Shown here piece after piece: positions 11,490-52,801 of a stretch of 64,000 nt of DNA (positions are counted from its first letter, which is position 1; each line of letters opens with the position of its first letter). Location of the stretch: positions 9,827-73,826 of the forward strand of contig JBFOMH010000032.1 of NCBI GenBank assembly GCA_040830765.1. Direction: 5' to 3'. The DNA comes from Puniceicoccaceae bacterium (GTDB taxonomy: Bacteria > Verrucomicrobiota > Verrucomicrobiia > Opitutales > Oceanipulchritudinaceae). The notes beneath the pieces were generated by a model. The model was not told where the DNA came from, searched no databases, and saw only the letters and a list, made by a program, of their open reading frames with translations. The position numbers and the translations under genes were made by a program.

Positions 11490-12154
11490 TTATCAGAATC
11501 GAGTTGGCCCGCCAGCCATTGCATGGCCAGGGCGGGACTGGATAAAATTGGAACCCGGCACTCCTCTGCCGGAATGGTGTCCACGACACGAGCCATCGAG
11601 GCTTGGGCAAGGAGGATGACATCACAGTCCGCCATCAAGGCGAAGAGACCCTCACGGACGCTTGCGTCATGCGCTTCAGGATCGCCTGACATGAGTGCCT
11701 CAAACGCGCCTTCGCAGAGATGCGATTGAACGTCGATTTCCTTGAGGGCAGTCTTGGCTACCCGTTCGACGAGATTCCTGGTCGGCTCAAGAGTGGTGGG
11801 CAGTGTGGCAATAACTCCAATCCGACTGCCGCTGGCAACGGCCTTTTCGGCCATCGCCTGATCCACCCGGTAGACTGGCACGGAGACAAAGAGGCGCGAG
11901 GCCTCAACAGCTGCCCCTATGGAAGAACAGGTGACAAGGATCCGCGTGGCCCCGCTCCCTTCCGCCTGTCGCACAAGTTCTGCCACCCGCCAGGCGACAT
12001 CCGGGGTCAGGCATCCGCTGGCGATGACATCCTTGATAAGGCTGTCGTTGGCGATGTGGAAGGTTGCCACTCCTGGAAGGGAATTGCTGGCCAGGTCCGT
12101 GAATAAGGGAACCAGGGTGGCGGAGGTGTGGATAAAGGCTATTTTCTCTTCCAT
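11486..12154 (-). CDS. Asp/Glu/hydantoin racemase superfamily protein (one canonical Cys)
   Basis: AFIHT, LVTCSSIG, VYRVDQAM, IGVIATLPTT, VILLAQASM. ATG at 12154 lies just after the kinase stop. Confidence 0.85.
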   Translation of the reverse strand: MEEKIAFIHTSATLVPLFTDLASNSLPGVATFHIANDSLIKDVIASGCLTPDVAWRVAELVRQAEGSGATRILVTCSSIGAAVEASRLFVSVPVYRVDQAMAEKAVASGSRIGVIATLPTTLEPTRNLVERVAKTALKEIDVQSHLCEGAFEALMSGDPEAHDASVREGLFALMADCDVILLAQASMARVVDTIPAEECRVPILSSPALAMQWLAGQLDSDK

Positions 12155-12156
12155 AA

Positions 12157-13560: not shown

Positions 13561-13561
13561 C

Positions 13562-22859: not shown

Positions 22860-22878
22860 GGGGTATGTCAGGATGGAC

Positions 22879-24722: not shown

Positions 24723-24730
24723 CGGTTTGT

Positions 24731-26149
24731 TTACTTGGCGGGATGTCGGTGGATTTCCCATCCGAGGTAAATCTCACAGGCTTCGATCATGACGTCCGCG
24801 GTATGGGAGGCATTCATGACCACATGGTGCTCGAATCCCTCACGACAGACAAAGCGCATCAGGTCCTGCAGGTCCTTGACTTCCGCGACCGCGCGGTTGC
24901 CGAAGGTCTTCAATTCGTCGTTGGTCAGCTGGCCCTCACCGAAGTATCCCTTGATGGTCCCGGTTGCGTCGTCTGTGCTCAGACGGCCAAACGTCAGGGG
25001 CGCGGCCGGTGTCCGCCCATCCAGCGCGCCGTAGGTGTTCTCCTCGCCAACAGAGGTTCCGAGAATGGGGGCTGTGCTCACCTTGGCATCGTCGAGGAAC
25101 GACTTCGCCCAGTTTCCGCAATGGAAGAGGACACATTTGTCATCCTCGTCGCCGTAGTTGTTGTTCCAGTCGACCAATGCGCTGGGGCTGGAGGAGGCCA
25201 ATTGCATGGCATACATGGTCAGGACGCCGGTTACATCGACTTCACAGGCGCTCGGCGCCAGCTCCTCGCTCATCATGCTCATGCTGGTGCAGAAGTTGCA
25301 GCCATGGTTCAGCTGGACGCTGGTCCAGCACTGGATGGCGGTGGCGTCGAGGTCGTTGTCGGCAATAAATTTGTCAAGGACTACACCCAGCCGGGCCATC
25401 TTTTCCAATCGGTCGGCAGGAACGCCGGTTGTATCGGCGTATCCCTCGATTTCAGCGACCTTGGCTTTCAAGGTAGCGTCGGAAGCCTCCAGCTTGTCGG
25501 CTGCCCCGAGGACTTCTGAGAGATCGACTGTGGTTACACTGATCCCGTTACGCTCAAGGATCTTTTCACTGTAGCGGACGGTATTGAATGCCCCGGGCCG
25601 TGCCCCGACGGCCCCGATGCGCAGGTTGCGCAAGCCATTGACCACCCGGCAGACGGAAAGGAATCGTGACAGGTCCTTCCGGAAGGAGGGATCTGAGGGA
25701 TGGACAACGTGTTTATTGGTCAGGCTATAGGGGATGCCGGCCTGGCGAAGGTTGTTGCAAACCGATATCTTGCCGCAATAAGCATCGCGGCGACGGACAA
25801 CGTCAAGGCGGTCCAGGGAGTCAGGGTAGGCGTGGATCAGGACCGGGACGTTCAGCCCAGCCAGCTTGAGGGTTTCCAGCACGCCTTTCTCATCACCAAA
25901 GTTGGGAAGGACCACGATAATTCCCCCAATTTCATCGGCGTGGGCCTTGAATAGCTGGGCACAAGCCTTGGCTTCGGCATGGGTTTCCACTCCTCCCAGC
26001 TTGGTCGCCTCGGGATCGAGTTGGATGGTCTTGAGATTGAGCTCTTCGGCCAGTTGTTGATAGTCATTTCGCGCTTCCTCGACGAGGCTATCGGGAAAAA
26101 AGTCACGATTTCCAAAAAGGAGTCCAAGTGATTCTTTGCTGTTTTTCAT
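24731..26149 (-). CDS. L-fucose/L-arabinose isomerase family protein
   Basis: GNRDFFP, LPNFGDE, RRDAYCGK, AIQCW, ACEVDVTG, VLFHCGN, GFEHHV. Confidence 0.88.
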   Translation of the reverse strand: MKNSKESLGLLFGNRDFFPDSLVEEARNDYQQLAEELNLKTIQLDPEATKLGGVETHAEAKACAQLFKAHADEIGGIIVVLPNFGDEKGVLETLKLAGLNVPVLIHAYPDSLDRLDVVRRRDAYCGKISVCNNLRQAGIPYSLTNKHVVHPSDPSFRKDLSRFLSVCRVVNGLRNLRIGAVGARPGAFNTVRYSEKILERNGISVTTVDLSEVLGAADKLEASDATLKAKVAEIEGYADTTGVPADRLEKMARLGVVLDKFIADNDLDATAIQCWTSVQLNHGCNFCTSMSMMSEELAPSACEVDVTGVLTMYAMQLASSSPSALVDWNNNYGDEDDKCVLFHCGNWAKSFLDDAKVSTAPILGTSVGEENTYGALDGRTPAAPLTFGRLSTDDATGTIKGYFGEGQLTNDELKTFGNRAVAEVKDLQDLMRFVCREGFEHHVVMNASHTADVMIEACEIYLGWEIHRHPAK

Positions 26150-26198
26150 GAAATAAAATCTTTAAAAGCGATATTTGCATGTTTTTCAATGAAATAAA
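26141..26198. promoter_or_regulatory. Tandem putative operators at the leftward catabolic operon
   Basis: gtttttcatgaaataaa (26141-26157, covering the isomerase start codon) and gtttttcaatgaaataaa (26181-26198), 40 bp apart in an AT-rich divergent region. Confidence 0.6.
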
Positions 26199-26404: not shown

Positions 26405-26433
26405 TTGACAACTTTAATGAAATTGAGTGAATT
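26405..26433 (+). promoter_or_regulatory. Putative promoter for GH141 with a degenerate operator in the spacer
   Basis: TTGACA at 26405-26410, then TTTAATGAAAT (26413-26423). The -10 match is weak. Confidence 0.4.
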
Positions 26434-28399: not shown

Positions 28400-31300
28400 T
28401 CATTCAACCTGCAGTTGGGCAAAGCTGAGCTTATTGAGGTCGTCTGCCTGAAGCCGGATAAAGTAAGTCCCGGCATTGATATCATCGCAGGTCCGGTTGC
28501 GGGAAACTTCCCAGTCATTGCCTTTGGAAGGTGAGAAGGTGAGGGTATCCTCGCATACCAGCCGGTCGTCACGGGTGGAGATGATTTGCAGGGTCGCTTC
28601 AATGGGCTCCTTTAGCGGGGAGCGATAAGTGAAGTTCAATCCGTATCGGTCGCCAACGCCGACTTTGATGATCCAGTCCATCCGGTTCCCTTCAATCTCG
28701 GGCGGTTGATAAACCTGGTCAGGGCGTACCTGCCTCGCCAACACGCAGTACATGGAAGCAGGGCTTCCATCAGGAAGGCTTGGATTCTGGAAAAGGCTGA
28801 CCGGCTCCCCGGGCTTCAGGCGGCGCTTGAGAAGGTCGAAGCTGCCACCATCCTCACTCGTTGCTTCCAGCGACCAACCGGTGGGAATCCAGTCCTTTAA
28901 CCAGTCCGGCAACTGTTCAACCCGGGCATCGATCCCGACAAATACCTCCGCGTGGCCTTCCACCATGAATGTGGCCTTGATATTCGGATTGGCCGCATCA
29001 GTGATGGGCGTGCGAATCCAGTCACAACCGCCGAGCCGGGTTGTGTATCTGCTGATGACCGCTCCACCATCACTATAGAGTCGTCGTCCGGCCTTTAGGT
29101 TGCCGAATGGCTTCCATCCATTTGGATCAGAACTTGAATAAACAGCAAACCCGTTAATGGCTGCGGCGGGCGGGGGCGGAGAATGGGGTTTCACAATGAC
29201 CGTGTACATGTCGGCGGATCCCGCTGGGGAATGTCCGGTTTGTCCGGTGGTAACGGTTTCGCCAGCCTTGAAGTGTTTCCGGAAAACGGCATGGCGGATG
29301 TCCGGGGCTCCGCTCGTCGAGAGAGAGTGGGTGGTCTTGTCCCAGCTCTGGAGCCAGTCTGGAAGCTCTTGAAGGCGGGGATCCAAGGTAACAAAAACAT
29401 CGGCATCCGATGTCAGTTCGAATTGCAGCAGATCTCCGTAATTGAAATGGGGGACGGTTCTCGCGGTTTGAATCCATTCGGACTCCCGCAACTCCCAGGA
29501 AAGGGAATGAATGGTCTCATCATCGTCGGAGTAACGGGAAACCCCCGTGTCGAGGAATGTCCGGACCTGCGTCTTTCCTTGTAGCGATGCGGTAGCGACA
29601 AGATTTTTGATGAGCCGTGACGCTTCGACTGGAACAGGATTTATCTCAGCGGAAGAAATGGCAATGGCACACAGGATGGCCTGGCTTGCCTTGACGGAGG
29701 GGAAGCTGATTTCGAGAACGCCTCCGGAAACTTGCGTCACCACGGTCTTGCGCAAGGCGGTGTCGTGTCCGGCCTCCTTCCAGATATCAAGTTCGGCAAG
29801 TGCGACTTGTCCGTTGACCGCTACGTCAAACAAGCGCCATCCCGTGCAATCCATCCCGCCTCCTGTCCCGTACCAAGGCTCGATGAAGTAGAGATCGACT
29901 GCGTACTGTCCGTCTGGAATCTCAAACGTGTAGGCCAGTTCATGGCGACCATAGCGGAAGGACTGGAACAGAGGGTCGTCGACCGTTCCCCTGACGGGGT
30001 CATAGGTTTCCCGCTTGCTGCCAAATTGCGGGGGAAGATTGGGAAAGGCGGATGCCCACGAGCGGGCTCCCCATGTTCTTCCGGGACCATGCTCCTGATC
30101 GCTCATCCAGGTACTGCCATGGCTGTCCACAAAGGTGGGTCCCCCAACATTGACCCGGTAAAGGTAGTGGCGCCCGGCTATCGGCTGGCAGGGATTTGCC
30201 GGATCGGGATCCCAGTCCGGCAGGTTTGGATCCCCGGGCAAGTGATGCAGGGTAATGATGTCGGTGGCGACGGTCCGGCCCTGGATGCGTGCCTCCGCGT
30301 AGAGGACATTGGTCTTGATCAAGGCCTTGTCCCACCGGAAATGCGTCCCGGTTCCGTTCTTGCGCTGAATGCCCAGTGAGCGACCCTTGTAGCCATTGAA
30401 TAACTCAACCTCCTCGGCGTTGGAATAGACGATTATCCCATCCTTCAATCCCGGCTCCGTCCAACGGTCTGGCCAGGTGTGGGATACAATGTAGACCATG
30501 GGCTCTGTTTCCGCGGGGACAAAGTTGCTGCGGTACATGTAGTAGACATCGAGGGGCTCTCCCCATATGGTCAGGAGCCCCTTGTTGTTGGCCGGACCGA
30601 TACGGTCCCATTCGCGAATCCCGTCACTGGCCTGTTGCAGCTTGCTGCCGATATTCCTTCCCGGATTATTGTGGGTCACCAGTGGCCAGGCGAAGTGGCC
30701 GATAGCCTGCTCCCGGACTGTATCCGCAAGGCGGACTTTCGTTTCCATGAGGGCAGCCATCCGGTCCTCGGTGAGTGGGCCCTCTTCAATGAAGCCGCCT
30801 TCCGAATGATATCCGATGCTGCGCCATGCACCGTATTCACCGACCAGCCTTTGTTGGACCAGCTCCCTGTTGTAGGCCTGGAGATCCCCACCATAGGTTC
30901 CGGACCAGTTTTGCGGGACATCCCAGTCCGTGCCTTCGCCCCCGTTGCAGGTGACGATGGGTCGCTGAATCGAGGCTGTGGGGTCCATTTCACGCATGAT
31001 TTCAACGCACTCCCGGGCAAAGTCCGCCGGAAGCTTGCTTTCATTTTGAAGCCCGTAGAGGAAGAGGGAAGGGCTGTTGCGCCGCTCCCGAATCCAGTCC
31101 CGTAGCAGGGCTTTGTAGTTATCCTTGAAGGCCTCGTTTTCAAACCAGATGTGGGCCCCGAATTGGGTCCACCAGAGGATGCCTTCCCGGTCCCAGATCT
31201 TGTTGAACCTCAAGTTGTGGGGGTGATGGGCATCCCGGAAGGCGTTGAAGCCGGCTGCCCTGACTTGGTTGGCCCGGATGTCCACCATCTCCGCCGAAAA

Positions 31301-32344
31301 GGCGTGGCTGCCTCCGAGAAGATGCTCGTAGTCGGCGACCCCATTGATGAAGACGGGCTCTCCATTCAGCTTGAAGGGTTGTCCCGGAGGGCCATTGAGG
31401 TCCGGCCACTCGAGCCAGCGGACCCCGTAGCCTGTTTCACAGGAGTCGGTCACTCTATCCGCCTCAACCAGTTCTGTCTTGAGGGTATACAGGCAGGGAT
31501 CCTCCAGTGACCACAAGCGGGGATTCTCGAGGACCGGACTTTCGCTGGTAAAGGTCTTCTTTTCCCCCGGTTCCAGCATTTCCTCGGATTCACCAATCCA
31601 GCAGACTGTACCGTCTGGAGATATCAACAAATGCCGGAGGACGAAAGTTCGCGGCGTGTTGCTGTAATTGCGGATTTCCGCCGTGATGTTCAGTTCGGCC
31701 CGATCGGCCGAGATGTTGCTTCCATTCCAGATATGGATGCCCCATGGTTCAATCCGTAGCGACCGGGTGATGACAAGATGAGCCGGACGAAAGATACCAA
31801 ATGGCTGGGAACCCTCGGAGAATCCGTATGCCTGCTCACACCCGCCGCATACCCATGGGAGGTCGCGAATACCTGCCGGGTGATGAGCCCGAACCAGGAG
31901 GCTGTTGGGCCTCCCGGGGATGGCCAGGTCTGTTGCGTCAAGGGTGAAGGTTGTCAGGCCACCGGCGTGGCTGCCGGCGTGCTTTCCATTGAGGTAAATG
32001 TCGGCATAGGAGCCGATCCCTTCGAAATATAGGAAGGCCCGCTGGTCCGGGTCCATTTCGGGAATCATGACTTGCCTGCGGTACCATGCCGTCCCGTGAA
32101 GATTACCATGCTTCAGCTGGCGATATCCAAAATAGTCATCCCAGTTATGGGGGACCGTCACGGATTTCCAGTTATCCACTGTCTCAAGGTCGGTCAGCTG
32201 GGTTTCCTCAGCCGAAAGGACCGTTTGCCAGTTATCCTCAAGTGGAATGACCCATCGGGCCGCTTCTCCAGGTAAAGCAAAGGCAAGAAGGGTCAGGAAA
32301 TTGACGACAAGATGACTACGGGCGCGACTCAATGGAAACATCAT
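28400..32344 (-). CDS. GH2 with malectin (CBM57) and further C-terminal modules (resembles the GH2 part of BT0996)
   Basis: VPHNWD, LYFEGIGSYA, GIFRP, AFRDAHHPH, GLQNES, GEYGAW. Malectin: RVNVGG, LFQSFRYG, YFIEPW, RLFDV. Signal peptide. Confidence 0.88.
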   Translation of the reverse strand: MMFPLSRARSHLVVNFLTLLAFALPGEAARWVIPLEDNWQTVLSAEETQLTDLETVDNWKSVTVPHNWDDYFGYRQLKHGNLHGTAWYRRQVMIPEMDPDQRAFLYFEGIGSYADIYLNGKHAGSHAGGLTTFTLDATDLAIPGRPNSLLVRAHHPAGIRDLPWVCGGCEQAYGFSEGSQPFGIFRPAHLVITRSLRIEPWGIHIWNGSNISADRAELNITAEIRNYSNTPRTFVLRHLLISPDGTVCWIGESEEMLEPGEKKTFTSESPVLENPRLWSLEDPCLYTLKTELVEADRVTDSCETGYGVRWLEWPDLNGPPGQPFKLNGEPVFINGVADYEHLLGGSHAFSAEMVDIRANQVRAAGFNAFRDAHHPHNLRFNKIWDREGILWWTQFGAHIWFENEAFKDNYKALLRDWIRERRNSPSLFLYGLQNESKLPADFARECVEIMREMDPTASIQRPIVTCNGGEGTDWDVPQNWSGTYGGDLQAYNRELVQQRLVGEYGAWRSIGYHSEGGFIEEGPLTEDRMAALMETKVRLADTVREQAIGHFAWPLVTHNNPGRNIGSKLQQASDGIREWDRIGPANNKGLLTIWGEPLDVYYMYRSNFVPAETEPMVYIVSHTWPDRWTEPGLKDGIIVYSNAEEVELFNGYKGRSLGIQRKNGTGTHFRWDKALIKTNVLYAEARIQGRTVATDIITLHHLPGDPNLPDWDPDPANPCQPIAGRHYLYRVNVGGPTFVDSHGSTWMSDQEHGPGRTWGARSWASAFPNLPPQFGSKRETYDPVRGTVDDPLFQSFRYGRHELAYTFEIPDGQYAVDLYFIEPWYGTGGGMDCTGWRLFDVAVNGQVALAELDIWKEAGHDTALRKTVVTQVSGGVLEISFPSVKASQAILCAIAISSAEINPVPVEASRLIKNLVATASLQGKTQVRTFLDTGVSRYSDDDETIHSLSWELRESEWIQTARTVPHFNYGDLLQFELTSDADVFVTLDPRLQELPDWLQSWDKTTHSLSTSGAPDIRHAVFRKHFKAGETVTTGQTGHSPAGSADMYTVIVKPHSPPPPAAAINGFAVYSSSDPNGWKPFGNLKAGRRLYSDGGAVISRYTTRLGGCDWIRTPITDAANPNIKATFMVEGHAEVFVGIDARVEQLPDWLKDWIPTGWSLEATSEDGGSFDLLKRRLKPGEPVSLFQNPSLPDGSPASMYCVLARQVRPDQVYQPPEIEGNRMDWIIKVGVGDRYGLNFTYRSPLKEPIEATLQIISTRDDRLVCEDTLTFSPSKGNDWEVSRNRTCDDINAGTYFIRLQADDLNKLSFAQLQVE

Positions 32345-34130
32345 CAATCAGGTATGTTTGCAGGGTGGCCTTCCTATCGGATCCGGGGAGCTCATGTCCT
32401 CCGTCGCCCCGATGGCGGTACTTTCCGGTACGGAATACCAGTCTTTCCACCTCCGGGATAAAATCCGTGAAGTAGGCGATGCGGTAAAGGACTTCCTTCC
32501 CGTCGACGCGGAGTTGGAACCGTTCTGTATTGGAGTCCGGGTTGACGTCGATTTCAATTTCAGTCCAGCGGTTGGCCTCATAGGTCCCGCCCGGTTTCCA
32601 AATTCCCTCATGACGGGCTTCGATTTTTCCCTCTTCTGTCAGGGCAATTTGTACCGGACGCCCGCCATTCGGGCCCACCACGTCAATTTCCAGACGTCCG
32701 TCAATCCGGGAAGGTTTGACCTTGAAGCGGATCAACGCACTCCGGTTCCTCGGGAAGACCTTGGTAACGGCTGCATAATCATAGGGATCCGCATCGGAAA
32801 GCCTGAGAGCCATTTCCTGTTGGCCCTGAGTGTCGTGAACTTCAACCGGTGCCCACAGGGGGCGGTAGACATTCCATCCAACGGGCATCCCGCCTTCGGC
32901 AAAGGACTCGAAGTCTTCCTTGAAGGCGTTGTACTGGACGGTTCCGTTGACCGGAACCGGAACCCGGCTGACCCAGATGTCCTCTTTGTTGACCGAGTAG
33001 GTCAGCCAAAGGTCATCGCCTGGAGGGTTGCCGTTGCCCGGGAAGATTCCCCGCACATACTGGGGTCCCATGTTCTTGTAGAGTCCGGGGAAACGCTGCA
33101 CGGGCAATTCACCGTGGACCGTCAGCAGGTTGCCGAAATGGCGACCGTCTTCACTCAGGGCGACAGCGAGCGGGTGCCGCAGACGGCTGGTCGGGTTAAA
33201 GACAAGGACATAGTGGCCATCATCCGTTTGCTGGGCCCAATACTTGGACGAATTGACGGGAAGGTTTTCCGCGAATCCCGTGCGAGTGAATGTTTCTCCC
33301 TCATCGATCGATATGGATGCCTGGGCATCCTTGGCTATTCCGACGACTTTCCCCTCGGGATTGCGGTAGAATGAGAAGGCCTTCCCCTTGACGCGGTAAA
33401 ACCCGTCCTCGGAGCGGTCTTCTTCCCACCATTGAGCTGTTGCCAGGCGATCTCCCAGCAGGGCCTCACAGGCGGTAACGAATCCCTCGTCGGGAGATTC
33501 CTCATAAAACGGATAAGCCTCCGTCAAATCGGCGTCCAAGTCCTCATGCTGGTTGTAGCGAATAAAAAATACAGGACCGAGCGACCCGTCGGGATAAATT
33601 TCCCGGACAACCCGGCCGATCCCACTCCCATCGTTCGGGCGGGGATAGAGTCCGTGGAAAGCCGTTGCCAGCAGGCGGCCGTTTGGAGCGACATAAAACA
33701 CCATCCGCTGGTGGGTGATGGTCTGCTTGCCATCAGGCAGCTGGATTGCCGGGAAAAGCAATCGTGGTGCTTCCCAGTGGACACCGTCCGTTGAGGAGGT
33801 GAAGGAGGTGTCCGTCGGCATGTCATGTTCATTGACCGGTGCGCTGAGATAGGCGAGGTAGAAGCGCTCGTTCCAATAGGCAAGGTTTGGAGCGTGCAGA
33901 TAGGTGTGGGCGAGCTTGTCGACATGCTCCGGAAAGGAACGGTTGGCCCGGTAGACTTGAATATTGTGGGTCCCCACTGCCGGCGCCAGGCCACCATCGG
34001 CGGCCGTACTTACTTCCTGTGTGCCGGTATAGACAATCGGGGAGGGGGTCTCATTAGAGACGCAGCCGGTTGTCCCGAGAAGTATCGAGAGGAACGGAAG
34101 GGTCCATTTCTTGAACATCAATTCAGGCAT
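32316..34130 (-). CDS. GH143 Dha (3-deoxy-D-lyxo-heptulosaric acid) hydrolase-like, probable lipoprotein
   Basis: PAVGTHNIQVYRANR, HAPNLAYWN, HQRMVFY, GIGRVVRE, GPQYVRGI, YSVNKEDIW resemble the BT1020 N-terminal domain as recalled. LLGTTGC lipobox-like. Start 34130 or 34118. Confidence 0.82.
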   Translation of the reverse strand: MPELMFKKWTLPFLSILLGTTGCVSNETPSPIVYTGTQEVSTAADGGLAPAVGTHNIQVYRANRSFPEHVDKLAHTYLHAPNLAYWNERFYLAYLSAPVNEHDMPTDTSFTSSTDGVHWEAPRLLFPAIQLPDGKQTITHQRMVFYVAPNGRLLATAFHGLYPRPNDGSGIGRVVREIYPDGSLGPVFFIRYNQHEDLDADLTEAYPFYEESPDEGFVTACEALLGDRLATAQWWEEDRSEDGFYRVKGKAFSFYRNPEGKVVGIAKDAQASISIDEGETFTRTGFAENLPVNSSKYWAQQTDDGHYVLVFNPTSRLRHPLAVALSEDGRHFGNLLTVHGELPVQRFPGLYKNMGPQYVRGIFPGNGNPPGDDLWLTYSVNKEDIWVSRVPVPVNGTVQYNAFKEDFESFAEGGMPVGWNVYRPLWAPVEVHDTQGQQEMALRLSDADPYDYAAVTKVFPRNRSALIRFKVKPSRIDGRLEIDVVGPNGGRPVQIALTEEGKIEARHEGIWKPGGTYEANRWTEIEIDVNPDSNTERFQLRVDGKEVLYRIAYFTDFIPEVERLVFRTGKYRHRGDGGHELPGSDRKATLQTYLIDDVSIESRP

Positions 34131-35127
34131 CGTTGGGTCCTTTTTGTCGCGCCATGCTGGCAGCCATGCGGATTGCCTCGAGGAGACTGCGGGGATCGGA
34201 TTTGCCGGTTCCGGCAAGGTCAAAGTTGGTTCCATGTTCTACAGAGGTTCGGATGATGGGGAGTCCCAAAGTAATATTCACCCCAAGCCAGATGCCGAGC
34301 ATTTTCACCGCGACATGTCCCTGGTCATGGTACATCGCCACTGCGGCATCAAACTCACCTTGCAGGGTCCGGAAGAAGACGGTGTCTCCCGGGTAGGGAC
34401 CGCTGACGTTGAAGCCTTCCTTGGTGGCCTGTTCAATCGCCGGCTCAATAAACTCGGATTCCTCGCTGCCAAAGAGTCCATGTTCTCCCGCGTGCGGATT
34501 GAGCCCGGCCACCGCAATTGATGGATTTTCGATGCCCATCTGCTGCAAGGCCTCACGGGTCAAGGCAATGACCTTGAGTATCCGTTCCGGTTGGACGCGG
34601 TCCACTGCCTCGCGAAGGGAAACATGTGTGGAAACATGACTTACCCGGAGCTTTCCTGCAGCCAGCATCATGGTGGCCCCGGGTGACTTGCAGAGGTGGG
34701 ACAAGAGGCCCGTATGGCCGTCGAAGGTATGGCCGGCAAGATTCAGCGATTCCTTGTTGATGGCATTGGTAACCATGGCACCGGCCTGCCCGTTGAGGCA
34801 CAATTCACCGGCCTTGCAGATGTATTGATAAGCTGCTTCACCTGCTTCAGGCGCAACTTTGCCAATATTCAGTGTTCCGGTATCCACATTGGCCATGTCG
34901 AGAACACGAATAACCTGTGGAGATGAGCCTTCGTCAGGAATCCCTGTAACTGGTTCGACCGTCGATCCTGTTCCAGTGTACTCTTGCGCGCGCTCAATGA
35001 TTGTCGCATCGCCGATGACAATGGGATTGCAGATGCGGTGGATATCTTCCTCTTGCCAGGCTTTTGTTATTAATTCGGGACCTGTCCCGGCAGGGTCCCC
35101 CATGGTGATAGCTATGGTTGGGCGCAT
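34123..35127 (-). CDS. pdxA: PdxA family dehydrogenase (PdxA2, D-threonate 4-phosphate dehydrogenase-like)
   Basis: ITMGDPAGTGPE, GHTG, STHVSL, GLNPHAGE, AMYHDQG, GVNITLGLPIIRTS. Coupled to a DUF1537 kinase gene. Confidence 0.93.
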   Translation of the reverse strand: MRPTIAITMGDPAGTGPELITKAWQEEDIHRICNPIVIGDATIIERAQEYTGTGSTVEPVTGIPDEGSSPQVIRVLDMANVDTGTLNIGKVAPEAGEAAYQYICKAGELCLNGQAGAMVTNAINKESLNLAGHTFDGHTGLLSHLCKSPGATMMLAAGKLRVSHVSTHVSLREAVDRVQPERILKVIALTREALQQMGIENPSIAVAGLNPHAGEHGLFGSEESEFIEPAIEQATKEGFNVSGPYPGDTVFFRTLQGEFDAAVAMYHDQGHVAVKMLGIWLGVNITLGLPIIRTSVEHGTNFDLAGTGKSDPRSLLEAIRMAASMARQKGPNDA

Positions 35128-36323
35128 TATTGAATGGTTTGGTCGTGGATATTGCTTAGCTCGGGCCAGACTTCCCTGGTAATGGTATCCGGCCAGGGAT
35201 AGCTGCCCGGCTTGATGGTGAAGTTAACCTTATGTTGCTTCAAGGGTGCAAGGGTGACCACCCCCGGTCCCCAGGCATGCATCATTTCGAATTCTTCCCA
35301 GCCTAGTTGCATGGCTATCGAGGCAGCGGTAGCCCCTCCTTCAACAATCAGATGGTCGACATGACCGGACTGGAGCGCTATTGAGGTAGCCAGGGCAAGT
35401 TGCTGGGCCACCCAGGTGGCGTTTCCGGAGTTCGGCTTGGCCTCGGATTGCATCCGCAGGACACAGCCCCTTGACTGGGTTTCACCTTGGAGAAGTTGCT
35501 TGCCCCATCGCTCTCCTGCAGCCTCGGTCGTGTCCTCTGTAGTGCCCTTGACGGTGACAATATTGGAGGTTTCCAACTGGTCCAGAAATGCCTGCTGCCC
35601 AATGTGGGTTGTGCCAGATACAAGGAGGTATTGCCCTTGGTTGAAAGTGGGTTCCGGAAAGTCAACTGGGGAGCGTTTCAGGGTCTTGACCAGCGCTTGG
35701 AAAAGGCCACCCCCACCAGCTAATAAGGTGGCATCATCCCACAGGCCGGCCCAACTATCCAAATCCTCCTCTGTTCGGGCATCACCAATAATAATCCCCT
35801 TCGTGGGTAATGTGTCCCCGGGCCTGGCCGTATGAACCTCGATACCGGGAACCGCACCTAAAAGATTAACTACAGCAGCGGACTTTGCCGGATGATGCAG
35901 GTCATCAGCGAAGGGTGTCTCGTCCAGGGGAACGCCATCAATGCGGTAAATTCCATCCTCGATTGTCCGACCCAGATGTGGATTGGCCGGGACGAGAATG
36001 GTCCGTTGCATGCCCATGACCCGCATCAGTGTAGAGAGTTCCGCGGCGATGGGTCCACGCATCACTGAATCGGTTTTCTTGAATAGAAAACGGGTGTTTC
36101 CCTGGTCACTCAGTTTTTCGGCAAGATGGCGAACCTGGGCTACTGCTGCCTCCTCCCCGCAGAGCCGGGTTTCGGTATCATATACGACAAGGTCCGCCTT
36201 TTCCTCCACGGGCTGCTGGCTCATGCTGACAATTGACCGCAGGCCCGGCCTGTGCCCGATGGCGGCAATCTCGCAGGCGCCAGTCAGGTCATCGGCCAGG
36301 GCCGTGAAGGATTTCCTGCTCAT
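35127..36323 (-). CDS. DUF1537 four-carbon acid sugar kinase (D-threonate kinase-like)
   Basis: ADDLTGA, DTETR, KKTDSVMRG, PANPHLGR, EGGATA, KPGSY. Confidence 0.9.
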   Translation of the reverse strand: MSRKSFTALADDLTGACEIAAIGHRPGLRSIVSMSQQPVEEKADLVVYDTETRLCGEEAAVAQVRHLAEKLSDQGNTRFLFKKTDSVMRGPIAAELSTLMRVMGMQRTILVPANPHLGRTIEDGIYRIDGVPLDETPFADDLHHPAKSAAVVNLLGAVPGIEVHTARPGDTLPTKGIIIGDARTEEDLDSWAGLWDDATLLAGGGGLFQALVKTLKRSPVDFPEPTFNQGQYLLVSGTTHIGQQAFLDQLETSNIVTVKGTTEDTTEAAGERWGKQLLQGETQSRGCVLRMQSEAKPNSGNATWVAQQLALATSIALQSGHVDHLIVEGGATAASIAMQLGWEEFEMMHAWGPGVVTLAPLKQHKVNFTIKPGSYPWPDTITREVWPELSNIHDQTIQ

Positions 36324-37233
36324 CAGTCAAGAAAGGGCAAAGGGCGGTTATCTGGTTCTTGATGTCTTCTGCTTCCTCGCCGCCCAATGTCTGAAGTGGC
36401 GGAAGAACATCGCTCCGGCAGAGGCCGATACCTGCCATGGCTGCCTTCAATGCCGCCAGGGATTGTCCCAAAGTGCGGTTTACCTGGGTGACAGCGGCAA
36501 CCGCATCCAATTGCCTCTGCAGGTTTTCCGCCTTTTCCCATTGGCCTTGAAGGGCGGCATCGTAGAGTTGCTCCCACAGTTGGGGTACCAGGTTGCCACT
36601 GCTTGGTACGAGACCGTCATATCCAAGCTTCAGGGAATCGACGGAGAGAATAGCTGAACCCATGAAGAGGGCGAAATCGTCCCGTCCGCCCAGGGCGTTG
36701 AAGACTGCTTCCATCCTGCCAGGTGCGTTTTCGGAATCCTTGAATCCGACACAAAGGGGAAGATCGGACAGGGCCACAACAACCTCGGGGGGAATCGACA
36801 TCCGCGTTGTCGCGGGGATGTTGTAAATCATGTAGGGCCCGGTGACTTGCTTGTCCAGAAGCAGAAAGTAATCCCGCATCTCGTTTTCGGTCAGGGGATA
36901 ATAAGCCGGGAGATGGGCCACCACGGCAGCAACCCCGAGGTCATGATAACGCTGGGCTGCGATAAGGGAATTGGAGAGACAATTGTCGCCGATTCCGGCA
37001 TATATTGGGACCTTGCCGTCTGCCGCCTTGACCGCAGCCTCAACCAGTAGTTGCCGATCCTGGCGCGGGATGGATGCAGTTTCACCTGTGGTTCCAAGAA
37101 CAAAGACGCCAAGGTTATGGCGGGCGATTCGTTGGACTATCCGACCGGCGGCCGCTAAATCGATAGCACCGTCCGCGGTGAACGGGGTGGTTAGGGGGAC
37201 GATTACTCCGGAGTGATTCATATTCGCCTTCAT
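36289..37233 (-). CDS. DapA/NAL family class I aldolase
   Basis: PLTTPF, GTTGE, YNIP, Schiff-base Lys in GFKDS. Confidence 0.92.
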   Translation of the reverse strand: MKANMNHSGVIVPLTTPFTADGAIDLAAAGRIVQRIARHNLGVFVLGTTGETASIPRQDRQLLVEAAVKAADGKVPIYAGIGDNCLSNSLIAAQRYHDLGVAAVVAHLPAYYPLTENEMRDYFLLLDKQVTGPYMIYNIPATTRMSIPPEVVVALSDLPLCVGFKDSENAPGRMEAVFNALGGRDDFALFMGSAILSVDSLKLGYDGLVPSSGNLVPQLWEQLYDAALQGQWEKAENLQRQLDAVAAVTQVNRTLGQSLAALKAAMAGIGLCRSDVLPPLQTLGGEEAEDIKNQITALCPFLTDEQEILHGPGR

Positions 37234-37236
37234 GAT

Positions 37237-38409
37237 TCAAAAAGCTTCCTCATAGATTGACATTGCAGCTGCCCGGTCGATGGGCCGGGGGTTGTTGTTT
37301 AATAAACGGGTAACCTGGAGTGCCTGGTCAGCCAGTTCAGGCAGGGCCTCGGATGGAATACCGAGACTGCCGAGGCCTGTTTCCAGGGAGCAGTCGCGGA
37401 GCATTTGCTGGATATGTCCGACGGCAGCTTCCGCCATTTCCATATCCGTCCCGGAATGCGCCACTCCCATGGCACGGGCGACTTCTGCGTAGCGCGTGGT
37501 CGCGGAGGGGAGATTGTACCGCATGACGGGAGCCAGCAGGACGGCATTGGCAAGGCCATGGGGGACCTTGTAGCGGGACCCTACAGGATAGGAAAGGGCA
37601 TGGACGGCGGCGGTATTGACTGGTCCCAGGCATAGACCGCCCAAGTAGCTGCCGAGGGCAAGTGCGCTCCTGGCAATAAGATCGTTCCCGTCCTTGATCG
37701 CTGCCACAAGTTGACTCGAAATCAGGGAAATTCCCTGGAGTGCGAAGGCATCGACGAGAACATGGGCATGCAGATTGGTATAGGCCTCGATACAATGGGA
37801 GAGCGCATCAAAGCCAGTGGCTGCGGTTACAGCCGGCGGCAGCGAACGGGCCAGCTCGGGATCAATAACAACGAGGTCCGGCACCAGGTAGGGACTGATT
37901 ACCGCCTGTTTAAGTCCGCTGGCTGGTTCCAGAAGGATGGCGTTTGGCGATGCCTCACTGCCGGCACCAGCGGTTGTGGGGAGACAAATCAATCTACGTT
38001 GGCGTTCCGGCAGAAGGTTTTTGCCAAAGTAGTGGGGCAACCGCGAGGGCTGATCCCCGATGGCCGCGACAAGCTTGGCGATGTCGAGAACGCTTCCACC
38101 ACCGATACCAATAATGGTGTCACATACGGAGGCGGGTTCCTCACTGCAGACTGCCTGGAAATCAGCAACTGTCGGTTCTGCCGGAAGGTCGCTCTTGATG
38201 AAGGCCTCAATCCCGCATTCAGCGAAAGCCGTAGCCAGTGTATCGGCTGTTTCAATACAAAAGTCAGCTGTCAGGATCCAAGCCTTGCGGCTTCCAAGTC
38301 CTTGCAAACCTTCAGCAAGCCGCGTGCGTTCACCACAGCCAAACCACAGTGCGGCAGGCGTGTTCAGGTGAATGGCCCCAAGGGCAGTTGCGGTTTGCGT
38401 CGGGATCAT
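37237..38409 (-). CDS. Iron-containing alcohol dehydrogenase
   Basis: GIGGGSVLDIAK, PTTAGAGSE, DALSHCIE, HALSY, VPHG. Confidence 0.93.
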   Translation of the reverse strand: MIPTQTATALGAIHLNTPAALWFGCGERTRLAEGLQGLGSRKAWILTADFCIETADTLATAFAECGIEAFIKSDLPAEPTVADFQAVCSEEPASVCDTIIGIGGGSVLDIAKLVAAIGDQPSRLPHYFGKNLLPERQRRLICLPTTAGAGSEASPNAILLEPASGLKQAVISPYLVPDLVVIDPELARSLPPAVTAATGFDALSHCIEAYTNLHAHVLVDAFALQGISLISSQLVAAIKDGNDLIARSALALGSYLGGLCLGPVNTAAVHALSYPVGSRYKVPHGLANAVLLAPVMRYNLPSATTRYAEVARAMGVAHSGTDMEMAEAAVGHIQQMLRDCSLETGLGSLGIPSEALPELADQALQVTRLLNNNPRPIDRAAAMSIYEEAF

Positions 38410-39953
38410 GCGGCACTCCTTTCCCCGGATGCTTTCCCGTAGATGGTCAGCTGCTCAACCTCCTCTGGCCGGTAACCACCAAAGATCAGGCTGGCTGCAT
38501 AGCCGACCCCGAAAAGGACAATGTGGCTAAGGACGCCAATGATGATCGGGTTGAGGCCGAAATTTAACGGCAGGTCAAGAATGTTGTTCTTGGGCTCGGT
38601 GAGCAGGGCCCAACCAGTGAACAACAGGCAGCTGATGATGCCTATGTAACAACCGGTTCGTGTGGCCCTGCGTGTGAGGAATCCGAGGAAGAACAGGCCC
38701 AGCATTCCCCCTGAGAGGATGGCAGCAATGGTTACCGCCCGCTCCATGACAGAGGCCAGTCCTTGTTCCGGTATTAAAAGAATGGCGATCAGCATGGTCA
38801 CGATGCCGGCCACCACGACCATGAGGCGGCCAAAAATGAGTTGAAACCTGTCCGAGGCTTCTGGCCGGAGGTAGTTCAGGTAATCGCGGGTCAGTACGGT
38901 GGCGATGCTGTTAAGGTCCCCGCTGACCGAGGACATCGAGGCCGCAAGGATGGCTGCAAGGATCAGGCCGACAATCCCCGCCGGCATGTTGTTAACGATG
39001 AAGTAGGGGACGACATTGTCGACCAATTGCGGCGGCGGTTGTTCCGTAAGGGCATAGTAGCCGAAGAGGCAGGCGCCGATAAACATGAAAATGCAGTAGA
39101 TGGGCACGCAGAGGAGGGCGTTCCAGATTGCTCCACGGCTGGCTTCACGGTCAGACTTGGCGATCAGGTAACGCTGCACCATGTGCTGGTCGGAAATGTA
39201 ACGCCTTCCCCAGTTGACCATGTAGGCAAGGATAAAGAGCCATTGGGAGGTCAGCATTGGATCACCTAGAGAGGTCAGGTCGAAGGATCCCAGGGTGAAC
39301 TTGCCCGCGCTCCAGGCTTCCCCGACAACAGCCCCGAAGGGACCTGCTTCCGGAGCGAACAGTAAACGGGCCACAATAAGCACAGCCGCCCCGACGAAAA
39401 TAAAGCCCTGCACCACGCTGGCCCAGACCACCGCACTGATACCGCCAATCATGGTGTAGAAGACGGTGAAAAGGGAGCTCCAGAAGATGACGCTGGGCAA
39501 GGGCCAGCCTGTCATCACATTGAGGGCGATAGCCGTGGTCAAAAGGGTCAGTCCGAGATCAAAGAGGCGGTCAGCAAGAAATCCGAAAGATGCATAGAAC
39601 CGCCCTCCCAGTCCAAATCGCTTGCCAATGTACTCGTAGGCACTCATGCCCACCGTTCGTCGGTAGAAGGGAACGATGTAACGGGCGACGAAGAGCAGCA
39701 CAATGACCAGGGTCAGGTTACCCAGGAGCAAAATCATGCCGCTTTGGTAGACCGTGGCCGGATGACCGACGACGGTACCGCTCCCGATGAGGACAGCCAT
39801 CAGGGTCATGGCTACGGCCCATCCCGGCATGGATTTGCCGGCTATGAAATACTGGCGGGTATCCTTCTGTCGCCTGGAGAGAAATACGCTCATTCCCAGG
39901 ATACCCAGCCCGTAGACGATAAGAATGCTGTAATCTAGTGCGGATAAGGTCAC
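38406..39953 (-). CDS. Sodium:solute symporter (SSS, SiaT-like)
   Basis: YFIAGKSMPGW, SAYEYIGKRF, DQHMVQRYL, LAASMSS. GTG at 39953 is preferred over ATG 40010, which overlaps the predicted -10. Confidence 0.9.
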   Translation of the reverse strand: MTLSALDYSILIVYGLGILGMSVFLSRRQKDTRQYFIAGKSMPGWAVAMTLMAVLIGSGTVVGHPATVYQSGMILLLGNLTLVIVLLFVARYIVPFYRRTVGMSAYEYIGKRFGLGGRFYASFGFLADRLFDLGLTLLTTAIALNVMTGWPLPSVIFWSSLFTVFYTMIGGISAVVWASVVQGFIFVGAAVLIVARLLFAPEAGPFGAVVGEAWSAGKFTLGSFDLTSLGDPMLTSQWLFILAYMVNWGRRYISDQHMVQRYLIAKSDREASRGAIWNALLCVPIYCIFMFIGACLFGYYALTEQPPPQLVDNVVPYFIVNNMPAGIVGLILAAILAASMSSVSGDLNSIATVLTRDYLNYLRPEASDRFQLIFGRLMVVVAGIVTMLIAILLIPEQGLASVMERAVTIAAILSGGMLGLFFLGFLTRRATRTGCYIGIISCLLFTGWALLTEPKNNILDLPLNFGLNPIIIGVLSHIVLFGVGYAASLIFGGYRPEEVEQLTIYGKASGERSAA

Positions 39954-40008
39954 GGGAGCGAGGATTGTGGAATGGTCGCGGGATGTGGAGACAGATGAAT
40001 TACATGTC

Positions 40009-40057
40009 ATAGAATTTCATGAAATAGGTTCTGTCAACTCTCTTATTTCATAAAATA
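40009..40057 (-). promoter_or_regulatory. Promoter and two putative operators for the SSS-ADH-aldolase operon
   Basis: Minus-strand TTGACA (40037-40032), 17 nt, TTCTAT (40014-40009). Palindrome ATTTCATGAAAT (40014-40025) in the spacer. TATTTCATAAAATA (40044-40057) centred 31 bp away. Confidence 0.65.
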
Positions 40058-40063
40058 GCCATA

Positions 40064-40094
40064 GAAAAACCGGGCCGAAGCAATCGGCCCGGTT
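40064..40094 (-). terminator. Rho-independent terminator of the LacI gene
   Basis: Stem AACCGGGCCGA / TCGGCCCGGTT with a 5-nt loop, ending in a T5 run on the minus strand, about 35 nt after the lacI stop. Confidence 0.8.
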
Positions 40095-40129
40095 CTGTTA
40101 TTCAAGACGATTGAAAGAAGTCAGCCTCT

Positions 40130-41218
40130 TCAGGGATTGGTAACCGATTCCCCGCGAATGAGTGATGGCTTGATGAGGATCTCCATGTCCGTCTCCACGT
40201 TCGGGTGGGCTATCCGCCAGAGGAGCTGGTCGACTGCCCGGTGGCCAATGAGTTCCGCATGCACATCGATGGAAGCGAGTGCCGGATGGAGATTGGCGGT
40301 CATGGATTTTTCATTGTTACAGGAGATGATGCTAACATCCCTTCCGGCACGTAAGCCCTTGCGCTCGAGCGCAGTGTAGAGCTGGATCGACGTCCTGTCC
40401 GAGGGCACGAATAGGCCGGTCGGCCGTTGCTCCTTGGGGATGGCCAGCCAGTCCTCAACCAGATGGAAGACGTTCTCCGTCTGGGTGATGGCCGGAAGCG
40501 GCCATTGCAGTTCAGTTGGAGGCTCAACCTCCAGCAGGCTGGAGTCCACTCCCTTTTCCTGGCAGGCGACAAGAAAGGTGGACTTCAGGCGCTCGAACTG
40601 GGTCTGGCCGGGCTTGGGATTGAAGAAAGCGACATGCTTGTGCCCCTTTTCGGCGAAATAATCGACAGCCAGGTGGCTGGCTTCCCACGTGTCGAAGTTG
40701 CAGTGATCGCCCTCGGCACCGGACAGTTTGCCCATGAGCCAGATGTGGGGGAGGCGGTAGATATACTTCAGGAGCTCGTAATTCTGGACCGGTGGCAGTT
40801 TTCCCTGGTTGGGTCCTTTGAGGATGAGGCCCTCAACCTTTCCCTCGACGAGGAAGGGTGGAATGCGGTCGCCCCGCGGGATGTTGGCAATCATCAGGTT
40901 TCTGCCCTCATTAGAAAGGGAATGCTCCACTCCCTGGAGGGCCCGGCTGATGATCGGTATCTGGATCAGGGTGTCTTCCATCCCGAAGCAAATGATTCCG
41001 ATATTTCCCTGTTTCTGGCTGACGCCGCTACGGGTCGACTTGCGTTGGCGGAGGCGAACGTAGCCCAGTTCATTGGCTGCTGCCAAAACCCTCTGGCGGA
41101 TCTCCTCATTAACGTCGGCATGTCGGTTAAACACCCGTGAAACAGTGCCGGTAGCGACCCCGGCGGCCTTGGCCACATCGGTTATGGTGGCCTTCTTTTT
41201 TGGTTCAAGCTTGCTCAT
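40130..41218 (-). CDS. LacI-family transcriptional regulator
   Basis: HTH ATITDVAKAAGVATGTVSRVFN followed by a periplasmic-binding-protein-like domain (GRDVSIISCNN, LASID). Confidence 0.93.
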   Translation of the reverse strand: MSKLEPKKKATITDVAKAAGVATGTVSRVFNRHADVNEEIRQRVLAAANELGYVRLRQRKSTRSGVSQKQGNIGIICFGMEDTLIQIPIISRALQGVEHSLSNEGRNLMIANIPRGDRIPPFLVEGKVEGLILKGPNQGKLPPVQNYELLKYIYRLPHIWLMGKLSGAEGDHCNFDTWEASHLAVDYFAEKGHKHVAFFNPKPGQTQFERLKSTFLVACQEKGVDSSLLEVEPPTELQWPLPAITQTENVFHLVEDWLAIPKEQRPTGLFVPSDRTSIQLYTALERKGLRAGRDVSIISCNNEKSMTANLHPALASIDVHAELIGHRAVDQLLWRIAHPNVETDMEILIKPSLIRGESVTNP

Positions 41219-41409
41219 ATAAATTGTTGAATCAGGAGGATTTTAATCTAGTTCAACTGAAACTTGGTGAAATAAAATCGGTTTGACAACCCGAATTGTC
41301 AGATTTGCGCATTTTCCAAGTAGCGCACTGCCAATGGGAAAGAGAACGGATTAGGGGATGAGGGTGGTGTCCCCGCAGGTGAACGGGTCAGGTGTCGGGA
41401 AAATAAGCC

Positions 41410-41425
41410 TTTCATATGAAATAAT
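41410..41425. promoter_or_regulatory. Putative operator (distal copy)
   Basis: TTTCATATGAAATAAT, identical to 41552-41567. Confidence 0.6.
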
Positions 41426-41509
41426 CCAGCTGGCTGGAAGAGGAAATACCTCGTTAAAGCCTTTACTAAAGGGCATTCAGGCTGGCACAAGGGTATCCGC
41501 TAATTCTTG

Positions 41510-41567
41510 TTGACAATGCCTGCCGGGGCAACCTTTATGAAAAAGGCTATATTTCATATGAAATAAT
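41510..41567 (+). promoter_or_regulatory. Putative promoter and operator for the rightward CAZyme operon
   Basis: TTGACA at 41510-41515 with a weak -10. Perfect 16-bp palindrome TATTTCATATGAAATA at 41550-41565. Confidence 0.6.
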
Positions 41568-41644
41568 TGACTCATTCGCTTTCTTCCAGAGAGAATACAC
41601 TTCATTGTTTTCACTCTACCGACTATATATTACCCTTCTTTCTC

Positions 41645-52787: not shown

Positions 52788-52801
52788 GAGTCGCCGTTTA
52801 C

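Follow-up and report, generated by a model that had tools for sequence, protein, structure and literature searches.

Rhamnogalacturonan II (RG-II) is regarded as the most complex plant glycan, and while its depolymerisation is known enzyme by enzyme the fate of its rare acid sugars is not. [quoted passage not shown] This question is raised by a stretch of 64,000 nucleotides (nt), here called the window, from a Puniceicoccaceae bacterium (Oceanipulchritudinaceae; assembly GCA_040830765.1, contig JBFOMH010000032.1, positions 9,827-73,826 of the forward strand). On its minus strand, read from 40010 to 32316, a run of six genes encodes an SSS-family symporter, an iron-dependent alcohol dehydrogenase (Fe-ADH), an aldolase of the dihydrodipicolinate synthase/N-acetylneuraminate lyase (DHDPS/NAL) family, a DUF1537 kinase, a PdxA-type dehydrogenase and a GH143 homologue. 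The initial annotation took these genes for a complete candidate pathway for Dha catabolism. All computational checks made were consistent with and supported this reading, and we consider it plausible, and rather to be expected than not, that the operon encodes a Dha catabolic route to pyruvate, dihydroxyacetone phosphate (DHAP) and CO2.

The annotation knew of no characterised Dha pathway, and we found none: among the matches listed in the full-text literature, which did not cover subscription papers, there was no description of Dha catabolism, a Dha aldolase or threuronate. According to the passages covered of a preprint on RG-II (10.64898/2026.03.13.711244) the pathways for several released RG-II sugars are unconfirmed, and the fate of Dha is unmentioned in these passages.

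The operon and the route proposed from it

Genes were called on the window from open reading frames (ORFs) and Pfam and NCBIfam profiles, and selected proteins were searched against the PDB. The six genes lie where the annotation had placed them, and the features of the region are as follows.

41567-44554, plus strand: fusion of a pectate-lyase-like domain and GH142 (PDB 5mqr and 9buj; Pfam MGH1-like_GH and GH65C)
41219-41566, between divergent genes: control region of the LacI and GH142 genes, with two exact copies of TTTCATATGAAA (41410-41421 and 41552-41563)
40130-41218, minus strand: LacI-family repressor (PF00356 and PF13377)
40011-40129, minus strand: control region of the catabolic operon, with the LacI hairpin (40068-40094) followed by palindromes and TTGACA
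38406-40010, minus strand: SSS symporter (PF00474, 1.5e-39; TIGR00813, 201.9 bits, cut-off 184)
37237-38409, minus strand: Fe-ADH (PF00465 and PF25137, both full length)
36289-37233, minus strand: DHDPS/NAL-family aldolase (PF00701, 4.5e-50)
35127-36323, minus strand: DUF1537 kinase (SBD_N, 125.7 bits; NBD_C, 26.3 bits, cut-off 28.3)
34123-35127, minus strand: PdxA (PF04166, 1.7e-104, 349.7 bits)
32316-34235 (ORF; likely gene 32316-34130), minus strand: GH143 homologue with a lipoprotein-type signal and a sialidase-like carbohydrate-binding module (PF24067, PDB 5mqr)
28400-32347, minus strand: exported GH2 protein with a malectin domain (NF049877, Pfam GH2 domains)

The junctions agree with the description of the genes as abutting or overlapping. 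Specifically, the symporter and Fe-ADH genes overlap by 4 nt, 3 nt separate Fe-ADH from the aldolase, the aldolase and kinase genes overlap by up to 35 nt and the kinase and PdxA genes by 1 nt. The GH143 start is most likely Met36 (34130) or Met40 (34118), which gives an 8-nt overlap with PdxA or a 4-nt gap, respectively. As to the extent first given to the operon (32316..40057), the gene run stands but its end at GH143 does not, since the GH2 gene (28400-32347), which overlaps with GH143 at their ends, continues the operon as its last gene. This GH2 protein has a signal-peptide-like N-terminus and matches NF049877 (BT0996-like) over profile positions 364-1281 (1216 bits, cut-off 1800), and is related to the beta-glucuronidase part of BT0996, which belongs to RG-II side chain A. 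The gene order exceeds chance, because it recurs in related genomes.

We propose the following route. Outside the cytoplasm, the GH142 domain of the 41567-44554 protein would remove the arabinofuranose cap from Dha of side chain D, and the lipoprotein GH143 (32316-34130) would then free Dha; these two roles are taken from homology and their order is assumed. The SSS symporter is the proposed importer of free Dha. Once inside, Dha would form a Schiff base at C2 with K165 of the aldolase, the putative Dha aldolase, and cleavage between C3 and C4 would yield pyruvate and D-threuronate (2,3-dihydroxy-4-oxobutanoate). The Fe-ADH, as the putative D-threuronate reductase, would use NAD(P)H to reduce this aldehyde to D-threonate, which the DUF1537 kinase, the candidate D-threonate 4-kinase, would convert to 4-phospho-D-threonate. 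Finally, the PdxA-type enzyme, proposed to be a 4-phospho-D-threonate dehydrogenase, would oxidise C3 to give a beta-keto acid that loses CO2 and leaves DHAP. The net reaction would be Dha + ATP -> pyruvate + DHAP + CO2 + ADP, and with the NAD(P)H spent by the reductase balanced by the reduced cofactor that the dehydrogenase gives back, the route would be redox-neutral.

The stereochemical argument made for this route in the annotation holds when worked through: C5 and C6 of the D-lyxo sugar would become the D-threo pair of D-threuronate and then of D-threonate, and a threo compound renumbered end-for-end keeps its D configuration. Moreover, the C7 dicarboxylate produced by DHDPS has its oxygen (trihydroxy) analogue in Dha, and relatives of the Fe-ADH reduce acid aldehydes such as succinate semialdehyde, of which D-threuronate is a dihydroxy analogue; both new steps would therefore be small departures from the chemistry of these families.

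The scheme has precedents. In the D-glucarate/galactarate (Gar) pathway, with the GarL aldolase, the GarR tartronate semialdehyde reductase and the GarK glycerate kinase, a 2-keto-3-deoxy-aldarate is likewise split into pyruvate and an acid aldehyde, which is then reduced and phosphorylated. Dha is one carbon longer than the Gar substrate and thus needs a fourth step, the PdxA-type oxidative decarboxylation, and the enzyme families also differ, being class I DHDPS-type, Fe-ADH and DUF1537 here whereas those of Gar are class II HpcH-type, beta-hydroxyacid dehydrogenase and glycerate kinase. Another is the work of Zhang et al. from 2016 (PNAS), in which DtnK (a DUF1537 kinase) and PdxA2 reportedly turn D-threonate into DHAP and CO2. 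With that system the operon has in common the adjacent DUF1537 kinase and PdxA genes and the proposed end products DHAP and CO2, but here the pair is joined to an aldolase, a reductase, a symporter and glycosidases.

Enzymes, glycosidases and control regions

In an alignment with E. coli DapA and NanA the aldolase keeps the catalytic set T48, T49, Y111, Y137 and K165. G47-T48-T49-G50-E51, Y111, Y137 and K165 align with T44, T45, Y107, Y133 and K161 of DapA, and the region of T48, T49, Y137 and K165 with S47, T48, Y137 and K165 of NanA; among its relatives K165, Y137, G47, T48, T49, G50 and E51 are invariant (34 of 34) and Y111 is found in at least 90%. With a Schiff-base lysine, a catalytic tyrosine and the GxxGE motif the protein belongs to the class I DHDPS/NAL family, and it falls under the cut-offs of every curated equivalog, that is, DapA, NanA, 2-keto-3-deoxygluconate aldolase and KdgD. 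The closest curated family by score is DapA (TIGR00674, 149.8 bits, cut-off 206.15), and the best PDB matches (best E 2e-36) are DHDPS entries. The NanA models give 93.1 bits (cut-off 281) and 73.9 bits (cut-off 382), and while NanA S208 is kept as S211, D191/E192 are replaced by A194/I195. Other positions are conserved specifically in the family of this aldolase, namely R/H144 (30 of 34), R253 (32 of 34; four residues after the position of NanA F252), H107 (31 of 34) and E168 (33 of 34). R/H144 and R253 adjoin known pocket positions, and we infer that these family-specific basic residues may bind the distal carboxylate.

Most relatives of the aldolase belong to Verrucomicrobiota, with Opitutaceae, Nibricoccus and Pelagicoccus prominent among them, and a tblastn search of 72,556 plasmids returned two distant matches (approximately 30% identity) and no orthologue. 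The window showed no second aldolase of DHDPS type. The reaction of DHDPS is the joining of pyruvate and aspartate semialdehyde, a 4-oxobutanoate, and the proposed step would be the reverse aldol reaction on the trihydroxy analogue; the aldolase differs from DapA in that it lies in a catabolic operon, in a clade separate from that of the E. coli enzyme, and scores below the DapA cut-off. The system also resembles sialic acid catabolism (E. coli nan), where a sialidase-fold hydrolase frees a 2-keto-3-deoxy acid, a transporter takes it up and a class I lyase splits off pyruvate, and the catalytic lysine, tyrosine and GxxGE motif are common to NanA and the aldolase. In contrast to that system, the aldehyde proposed here would be no N-acetylhexosamine but a C4 uronic acid destined for reduction, phosphorylation and decarboxylation.

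The Fe-ADH covers both of its family profiles in full (PF00465, 1-168 of 168; PF25137, 1-194 of 194). Its top NCBIfam models are lactaldehyde reductase (237.6 bits), sulfoacetaldehyde reductase (227.9 bits) and 4-hydroxybutyrate dehydrogenase (201 bits), all under cut-off, and by these scores its closest kin are reductases that act on small acid or hydroxy aldehydes. The kinase is a very divergent DUF1537 protein: PDB chains of the family align with residues 8-375 at E 3e-11 (matches around 1e-11), and the score of the NBD_C domain is slightly under its cut-off. Its best NCBIfam model is D-threonate kinase (NF047819, 108 bits), followed by 3-oxo-tetronate kinase with 85.8 bits. The D-threonate kinase model is also on top in the seven other cassette kinases compared, from various clades, and thus in eight of eight (93-137 bits vs 54-99 bits for 3-oxo-tetronate kinase). 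A second DUF1537 protein in the window (12157-13653) is OiaK-like and unlike the cassette kinase. PdxA matches PF04166 over its full length and TIGR00557 with 364.4 bits (cut-off 290.35), and its gene adjoins that of the DUF1537 kinase, which is the genomic hallmark of PdxA2. The symporter is an SSS-family member by TIGR00813.

The last of the six genes, claimed to encode a GH143-like hydrolase, is confirmed as a GH143 homologue by PDB 5mqr (BT1020; E 2.9e-113, residues 62-608 against 22-576 of the chain, i.e. the GH143 half only) and by PF24067 (BT_1020-like propeller; 3.4e-85, 285.8 bits, cut-off 27). The N-terminal domain of BT1020 founded GH143, a family marked by hydrolysis of the beta-Dha-(2,3)-GalA linkage. 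From Met40 the protein reads as having a lipoprotein-type signal peptide. The other half of BT1020 is encoded at 41567-44554, where the C-terminal half of the product is GH142 (residues 459-989 against 580-1101 of 5mqr, E 2.4e-158) and the N-terminal half is pectate-lyase-like (residues 52-467 against 9buj, E 3.8e-54); its N-terminus is signal-peptide-like and the true start is likely Met27, at about 41645. In BT1020, as far as the accessible text of PMC13501991 goes, the GH142 domain is the beta-L-arabinofuranosidase and the GH143 domain the Dha hydrolase for side chain D of RG-II. The GH142 gene is divergent from LacI and 1.5 kb upstream of the catabolic operon; with both BT1020 halves found around LacI and the cassette, the enzymes for the arabinofuranose-Dha unit of side chain D thus bracket the regulator and the catabolic genes. 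Compared with BT1020 of B. thetaiotaomicron, both halves are present and exported, but here two separate genes encode them, one on either side of the regulator and catabolic genes, and GH142 has the pectate-lyase-like domain joined to it. The published accounts, in the parts accessible, describe no catabolic genes beside BT1020. Signal peptides are predicted for GH143, GH142 and GH2 whereas the four catabolic enzymes are without, and this predicted compartment logic, with exported glycosidases and a transporter of a small-solute family in the operon, supports the reading as a Dha route.

The claim that the operon has its own promoter and operators stood in part: operator-like palindromes are present, but no canonical -35/-10 pair was found for the operon strand; a consensus scan gave 5 sites vs 7.2 expected, none of them on this strand in this region. 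A lone TTGACA was seen by eye on the operon strand at 40032-40037. Upstream of the operon the LacI gene is closed by its own strong hairpin terminator (40068-40094), and terminator-like sites inside the operon were not above chance (19 vs 13.9 +/- 3.7 expected). An automatic inverted-repeat search of 39990-41600 returned nothing; the palindromes were spotted by reading the sequence and then tested. One of these, ATTTCATGAAAT, is located at 40014-40025, 3 nt before the SSS start codon, with a one-mismatch copy at 40045-40056, and a looser search of the window for it gave 6 matches vs 2.5 expected. For TTTCATATGAAA, present twice in the divergent control region, 0.09 exact matches were expected and 0 of 100 shuffles reached two. 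The palindrome TTTCAT(AT)GAAA is common to both promoter regions. Among the 80 related loci described below, the TTTCATATGAAA 12-mer occurs in 12, between or beside the GH142 and LacI genes, and TTTCATGAAA in 12, at or near the junction of LacI and the first cassette gene; a LacI homologue (>200 bits) is present in 18, all of them Opitutales-type. A LacI repressor binding at TTTCAT(AT)GAAA palindromes is probably what regulates the GH142 unit as well as the catabolic operon. Near-matches to ATTTCATGAAAT with one and two mismatches are also present at 26143-26154, at the start of the apiose-cluster isomerase gene, and at 26412-26423, in the intergenic region before GH141; given the total of the looser search these reflect either a wider regulon or chance.

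The cassette in other genomes and its possible substrates

A genome scan with an alignment of 34 aldolase relatives gave 80 loci with flanks of up to 10 kb, and the window proteins were compared with all ORFs of these loci using phmmer. Beside the aldolase, 69 loci carry at least one of Fe-ADH, kinase and PdxA, 53 have both kinase and PdxA, 45 the full trio and 30 the trio together with SSS; many among the rest of the 80 are cut by contig ends. An SSS homologue lies on the aldolase strand within 7 kb in 30 of the 45 full-trio loci. The loci come from Verrucomicrobiota, Planctomycetota, Bacteroidota, Lentisphaerota and other phyla. With at least 5 kb upstream and at least 8 kb downstream, 41 loci counted as well-flanked, and 30 of these have the full trio, 13 with GH143 and 20 with some RG-II marker; no RG-II marker was found near the well-flanked lone aldolases (0 of 6). 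GH143 was detected in 18 of the 80 loci by a domain-level search (the Opitutales clade and locus L053) and the GH142 domain also in 18, which gives 21 loci with either, in three separate aldolase clades. Elsewhere the cassette stands beside apiose, GH78, GH141 and GH95 genes (L057, L058, L060, L073 and L078) or beside SusC/SusD genes (L041 and L070). Co-occurrence with GH143 had been named in the annotation as a check, and its outcome is favourable though not complete: the cassette is conserved across phyla (53 and 45 of 80) with GH143 or GH142 nearby in 21; on the other side are the full cassettes without RG-II genes discussed below.

In a maximum-likelihood tree of 83 rows (L063, L069 and L080 were left out because of short matches) all locus aldolases lie on one side of a branch with SH-aLRT 99, apart from E. 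coli DapA, NanA and YagE. The rows with GH143, before L053 was added, all belong to one Opitutales clade of 25 rows (SH-aLRT 100), and L053 and L027 fall in two other clades. Of the eight Opitutales rows without GH143, seven come from loci that break off within 2.3 kb on the downstream side of the aldolase, and the eighth is L045. Locus L053 (Pirellulales) encodes a BT1020-like GH143-GH142 fusion (104-3484, minus strand) 6.4 kb from the cassette, and L027 (Tepidisphaeraceae) a stand-alone GH142 protein (14529-16118, plus strand) directly after the cassette SSS. These two Planctomycetota loci tie the cassette to side-chain-D enzymes independently of Opitutales, and since the GH143/GH142 link is found in three clades it arose at least three times.

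The layout of the cassette varies. In Opitutales the SSS gene comes first in the window and between PdxA and GH143 in the Nibricoccus-type loci L004, L013, L014 and L015, and outside Opitutales the order of the kinase and PdxA genes is reversed, with PdxA before the kinase. A Chitinophagaceae metagenome-assembled genome (MAG; L070, 2354-8819) has a GH78/BNR fusion of 1260 residues that is BT1013-like, a second SSS transporter and a second DHDPS gene; next come the cassette genes, with Fe-ADH first and then aldolase, PdxA, kinase and SSS. BT1013 combines a rhamnosidase (GH78) with a hydrolase for the RG-II sugar Kdo (3-deoxy-D-manno-oct-2-ulosonate), according to the accessible text of PMC13501991, and L070 may be a combined Kdo and Dha locus. 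In MAGs assigned to Bifidobacteriaceae, Candidatus Angelobacter (Acidobacteriota), Haliangiales and Methylacidimicrobium (L033, L042, L057, L067 and L073) the aldolases nest in Verrucomicrobiota clades, and L042 has neighbours (type II secretion ATPases, Calx-beta, FGE-sulfatase) that do not look bifidobacterial; possible explanations are gene transfer and mis-binning.

Several observations weigh against Dha as the substrate, or against the roles assigned to single enzymes. Both DtnK/PdxA2-type proteins score far under the equivalog cut-offs: the kinase has 108 bits vs 450 for DtnK (93-137 bits among the cassettes) and PdxA 323.9 bits vs 583 for PdxA2 (NF002891), with 284-345 bits in the seven other cassettes. 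PdxA passes the generic biosynthetic model, as do the PdxA proteins of all seven other cassettes, so its sequence alone cannot separate the PdxA and PdxA2 roles. In the aldolase, DapA R138, which binds the substrate carboxylate, is replaced by T142 (T in 28 and A in 6 of 34 relatives), a further difference from DapA. The operon also holds the GH2 gene of side-chain-A type, and operon membership is hence not specific to side chain D. Among the well-flanked full cassettes, 10 of 30 have no RG-II marker within 10 kb (L035, L036, L037, L041, L042, L043, L045, L048, L059 and L062). The aldolase of L034 stands alone though its nearest relatives carry the cassette, and in four Planctomycetota loci (L027, L030, L053 and L055) the aldolase is accompanied by PdxA, kinase and SSS while no Fe-ADH lies within 10 kb; a Pfam search of the ORFs right upstream of the aldolase in L027 and L053 gave no match. 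Finally, the side-chain-D linkage rests on few events, with GH143 adjacency being essentially that of one Opitutales clade and one Pirellulales locus.

The loci without GH143 and the cassettes without RG-II markers would fit a reading in which the cassette degrades a different acid sugar or a broader set of them, such as ulosaric or ulosonic acids of algal or bacterial glycans freed by sialidase-fold enzymes, with the Opitutales GH143 as a secondary recruitment. Outside Opitutales and L053 there is no GH143 within 10 kb, and the neighbours there include other BNR/sialidase-fold genes (FGE-sulfatase with BNR_2 in L042 and L045, BNR_2 in L058). Such proteins, fusing an FGE-sulfatase-type domain and a BNR/sialidase-like propeller, are encoded at 13064-15583 in L045 and at 7890-9980 and 13061-16405 in L042; that of L045 takes the position of GH143 in Opitutales and one of L042 lies inside the cassette. 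In a PDB search the L045 protein matched FGE-type domains only, and we regard the L045 and L042 fusions as candidate members of another hydrolase family, with the same acid sugar or a related one as substrate. The chemistry argues against this reading, as the kinase and PdxA would need a C4 acid sugar with a free terminal CH2OH, and of the known 2-keto-3-deoxy acids a heptulosaric acid alone would give such a C4 acid after cleavage and reduction. Kdo can be discarded on these grounds, since its cleavage would give D-arabinose and leave the Fe-ADH, the kinase and PdxA without a role. The links to GH142/GH143 in three aldolase clades also speak against a different acid sugar. Moreover, Dha is present in prasinophyte scales and the Tetraselmis theca, as described in the accessible part of PMC10762512, so the absence of RG-II genes does not keep a cassette from being one for Dha. 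All in all, we think a different acid sugar unlikely.

The operon might instead combine two unrelated functions, a deoxy-sugar aldolase with the Fe-ADH on the one hand, and on the other a kinase and PdxA acting on free tetronates (threonate or erythronate) from elsewhere. We judge this improbable. On this view the aldolase and Fe-ADH would complete a non-phosphorylative route in which 2-keto-3-deoxy-L-fuconate or -rhamnonate is split into pyruvate and L-lactaldehyde and the latter reduced to 1,2-propanediol. RG-II is rich in L-fucose and L-rhamnose, lactaldehyde reductase is among the best Fe-ADH models and some sources label homologues of the aldolase as '2-dehydro-3-deoxy-D-pentonate aldolase'. 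Yet the lactaldehyde reductase score (237.6 bits) is less than half of the cut-off of 523, and neither the operon nor its conserved neighbours include a sugar dehydrogenase, a lactonase or a dehydratase. Furthermore, 53 of the 80 loci, from several phyla, have the aldolase coupled to kinase and PdxA, a tighter link than that with the Fe-ADH; such coupling is unexpected if the two functions were unrelated. That the kinase and PdxA serve vitamin B6 metabolism (as 4-hydroxy-L-threonine kinase and biosynthetic PdxA) and are placed here fortuitously is very improbable, for although PdxA passes TIGR00557 (364 vs 290 bits) and DUF1537 members can phosphorylate 4-hydroxythreonine (accessible text of PMC7954711), the pair sits within a sugar operon under LacI control, flanked by an aldolase and a glycosidase, this arrangement is kept across phyla, and the neighbours scanned included neither pdxJ nor any other B6 gene.

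Setting in the window and implications

The entire 64-kb window is predicted to be an RG-II degradation cluster. Among its genes are GH141, GH127, four GH78, GH95 with a pectin methylesterase, GH28, pectate-lyase-like, DUF3826 and DUF6298 genes, and a transketolase-type apiose cluster is present at 21381-26149. Three paralogous pectate-lyase-like domains are encoded on the plus strand (1212-3449, 4413-5957 and 41567-42970) and resemble PDB 9buj (E 8e-45, 1e-48 and 4e-54, respectively). The first two were without match in Pfam and are, as pectate-lyase-like proteins, rejected as GH142 candidates; an unassigned ORF (17795-19255), checked for the same reason, had no match in a PDB search.

Two other groups of genes appear to concern acid sugars. 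A second acid-sugar module on the minus strand (10197-14893) combines a transporter of the SBF family and a protein of the Asp/Glu-racemase family with a DUF1537 kinase and a RuBisCO-like protein; the kinase is OiaK-like (372 bits) and the RuBisCO-like protein OiaX-like (474 bits), both well under the equivalog cut-offs (700 for each). The module may represent a second apiose/apionate route or, speculatively, a route for the branched sugar aceric acid given the nearby gene (19301-21364) of GH127, which is the family of aceric-acid hydrolases. At 50177-55561 on the plus strand are an SSS transporter, a BNR_2 protein of 367 residues that is distantly GH33-like (PDB sialidase B, E approximately 3e-8) and a GH78 protein, which together look like BT1013 in split form (GH78 rhamnosidase and Kdo hydrolase, for side chain C of RG-II), and the transporter may import Kdo.

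If the Dha reading of the operon is true, this would be the first catabolic route for Dha and a new upstream branch that feeds the known D-threonate module, and it would provide a natural source of D-threonate for pathways of the DtnK/PdxA2 type. Three clades that now have generic annotations only, one of the DHDPS family, one of Fe-ADH and one, very divergent, of DUF1537, would also gain functions, and the combination of aldolase, kinase and PdxA would be a compact marker of Dha use among Verrucomicrobiota, Planctomycetota and Bacteroidota of soil, gut and aquatic environments. More tentatively, the four-enzyme cassette could be the missing Dha route in several phyla, with Dha derived both from RG-II and from prasinophyte scales and thecae. 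In that case the aldolase would be the first of a new specificity class within the DHDPS/NAL superfamily, that of Dha aldolases, and the FGE-sulfatase/BNR fusions of L045 and L042 would represent a second, undescribed family of Dha-releasing hydrolases.

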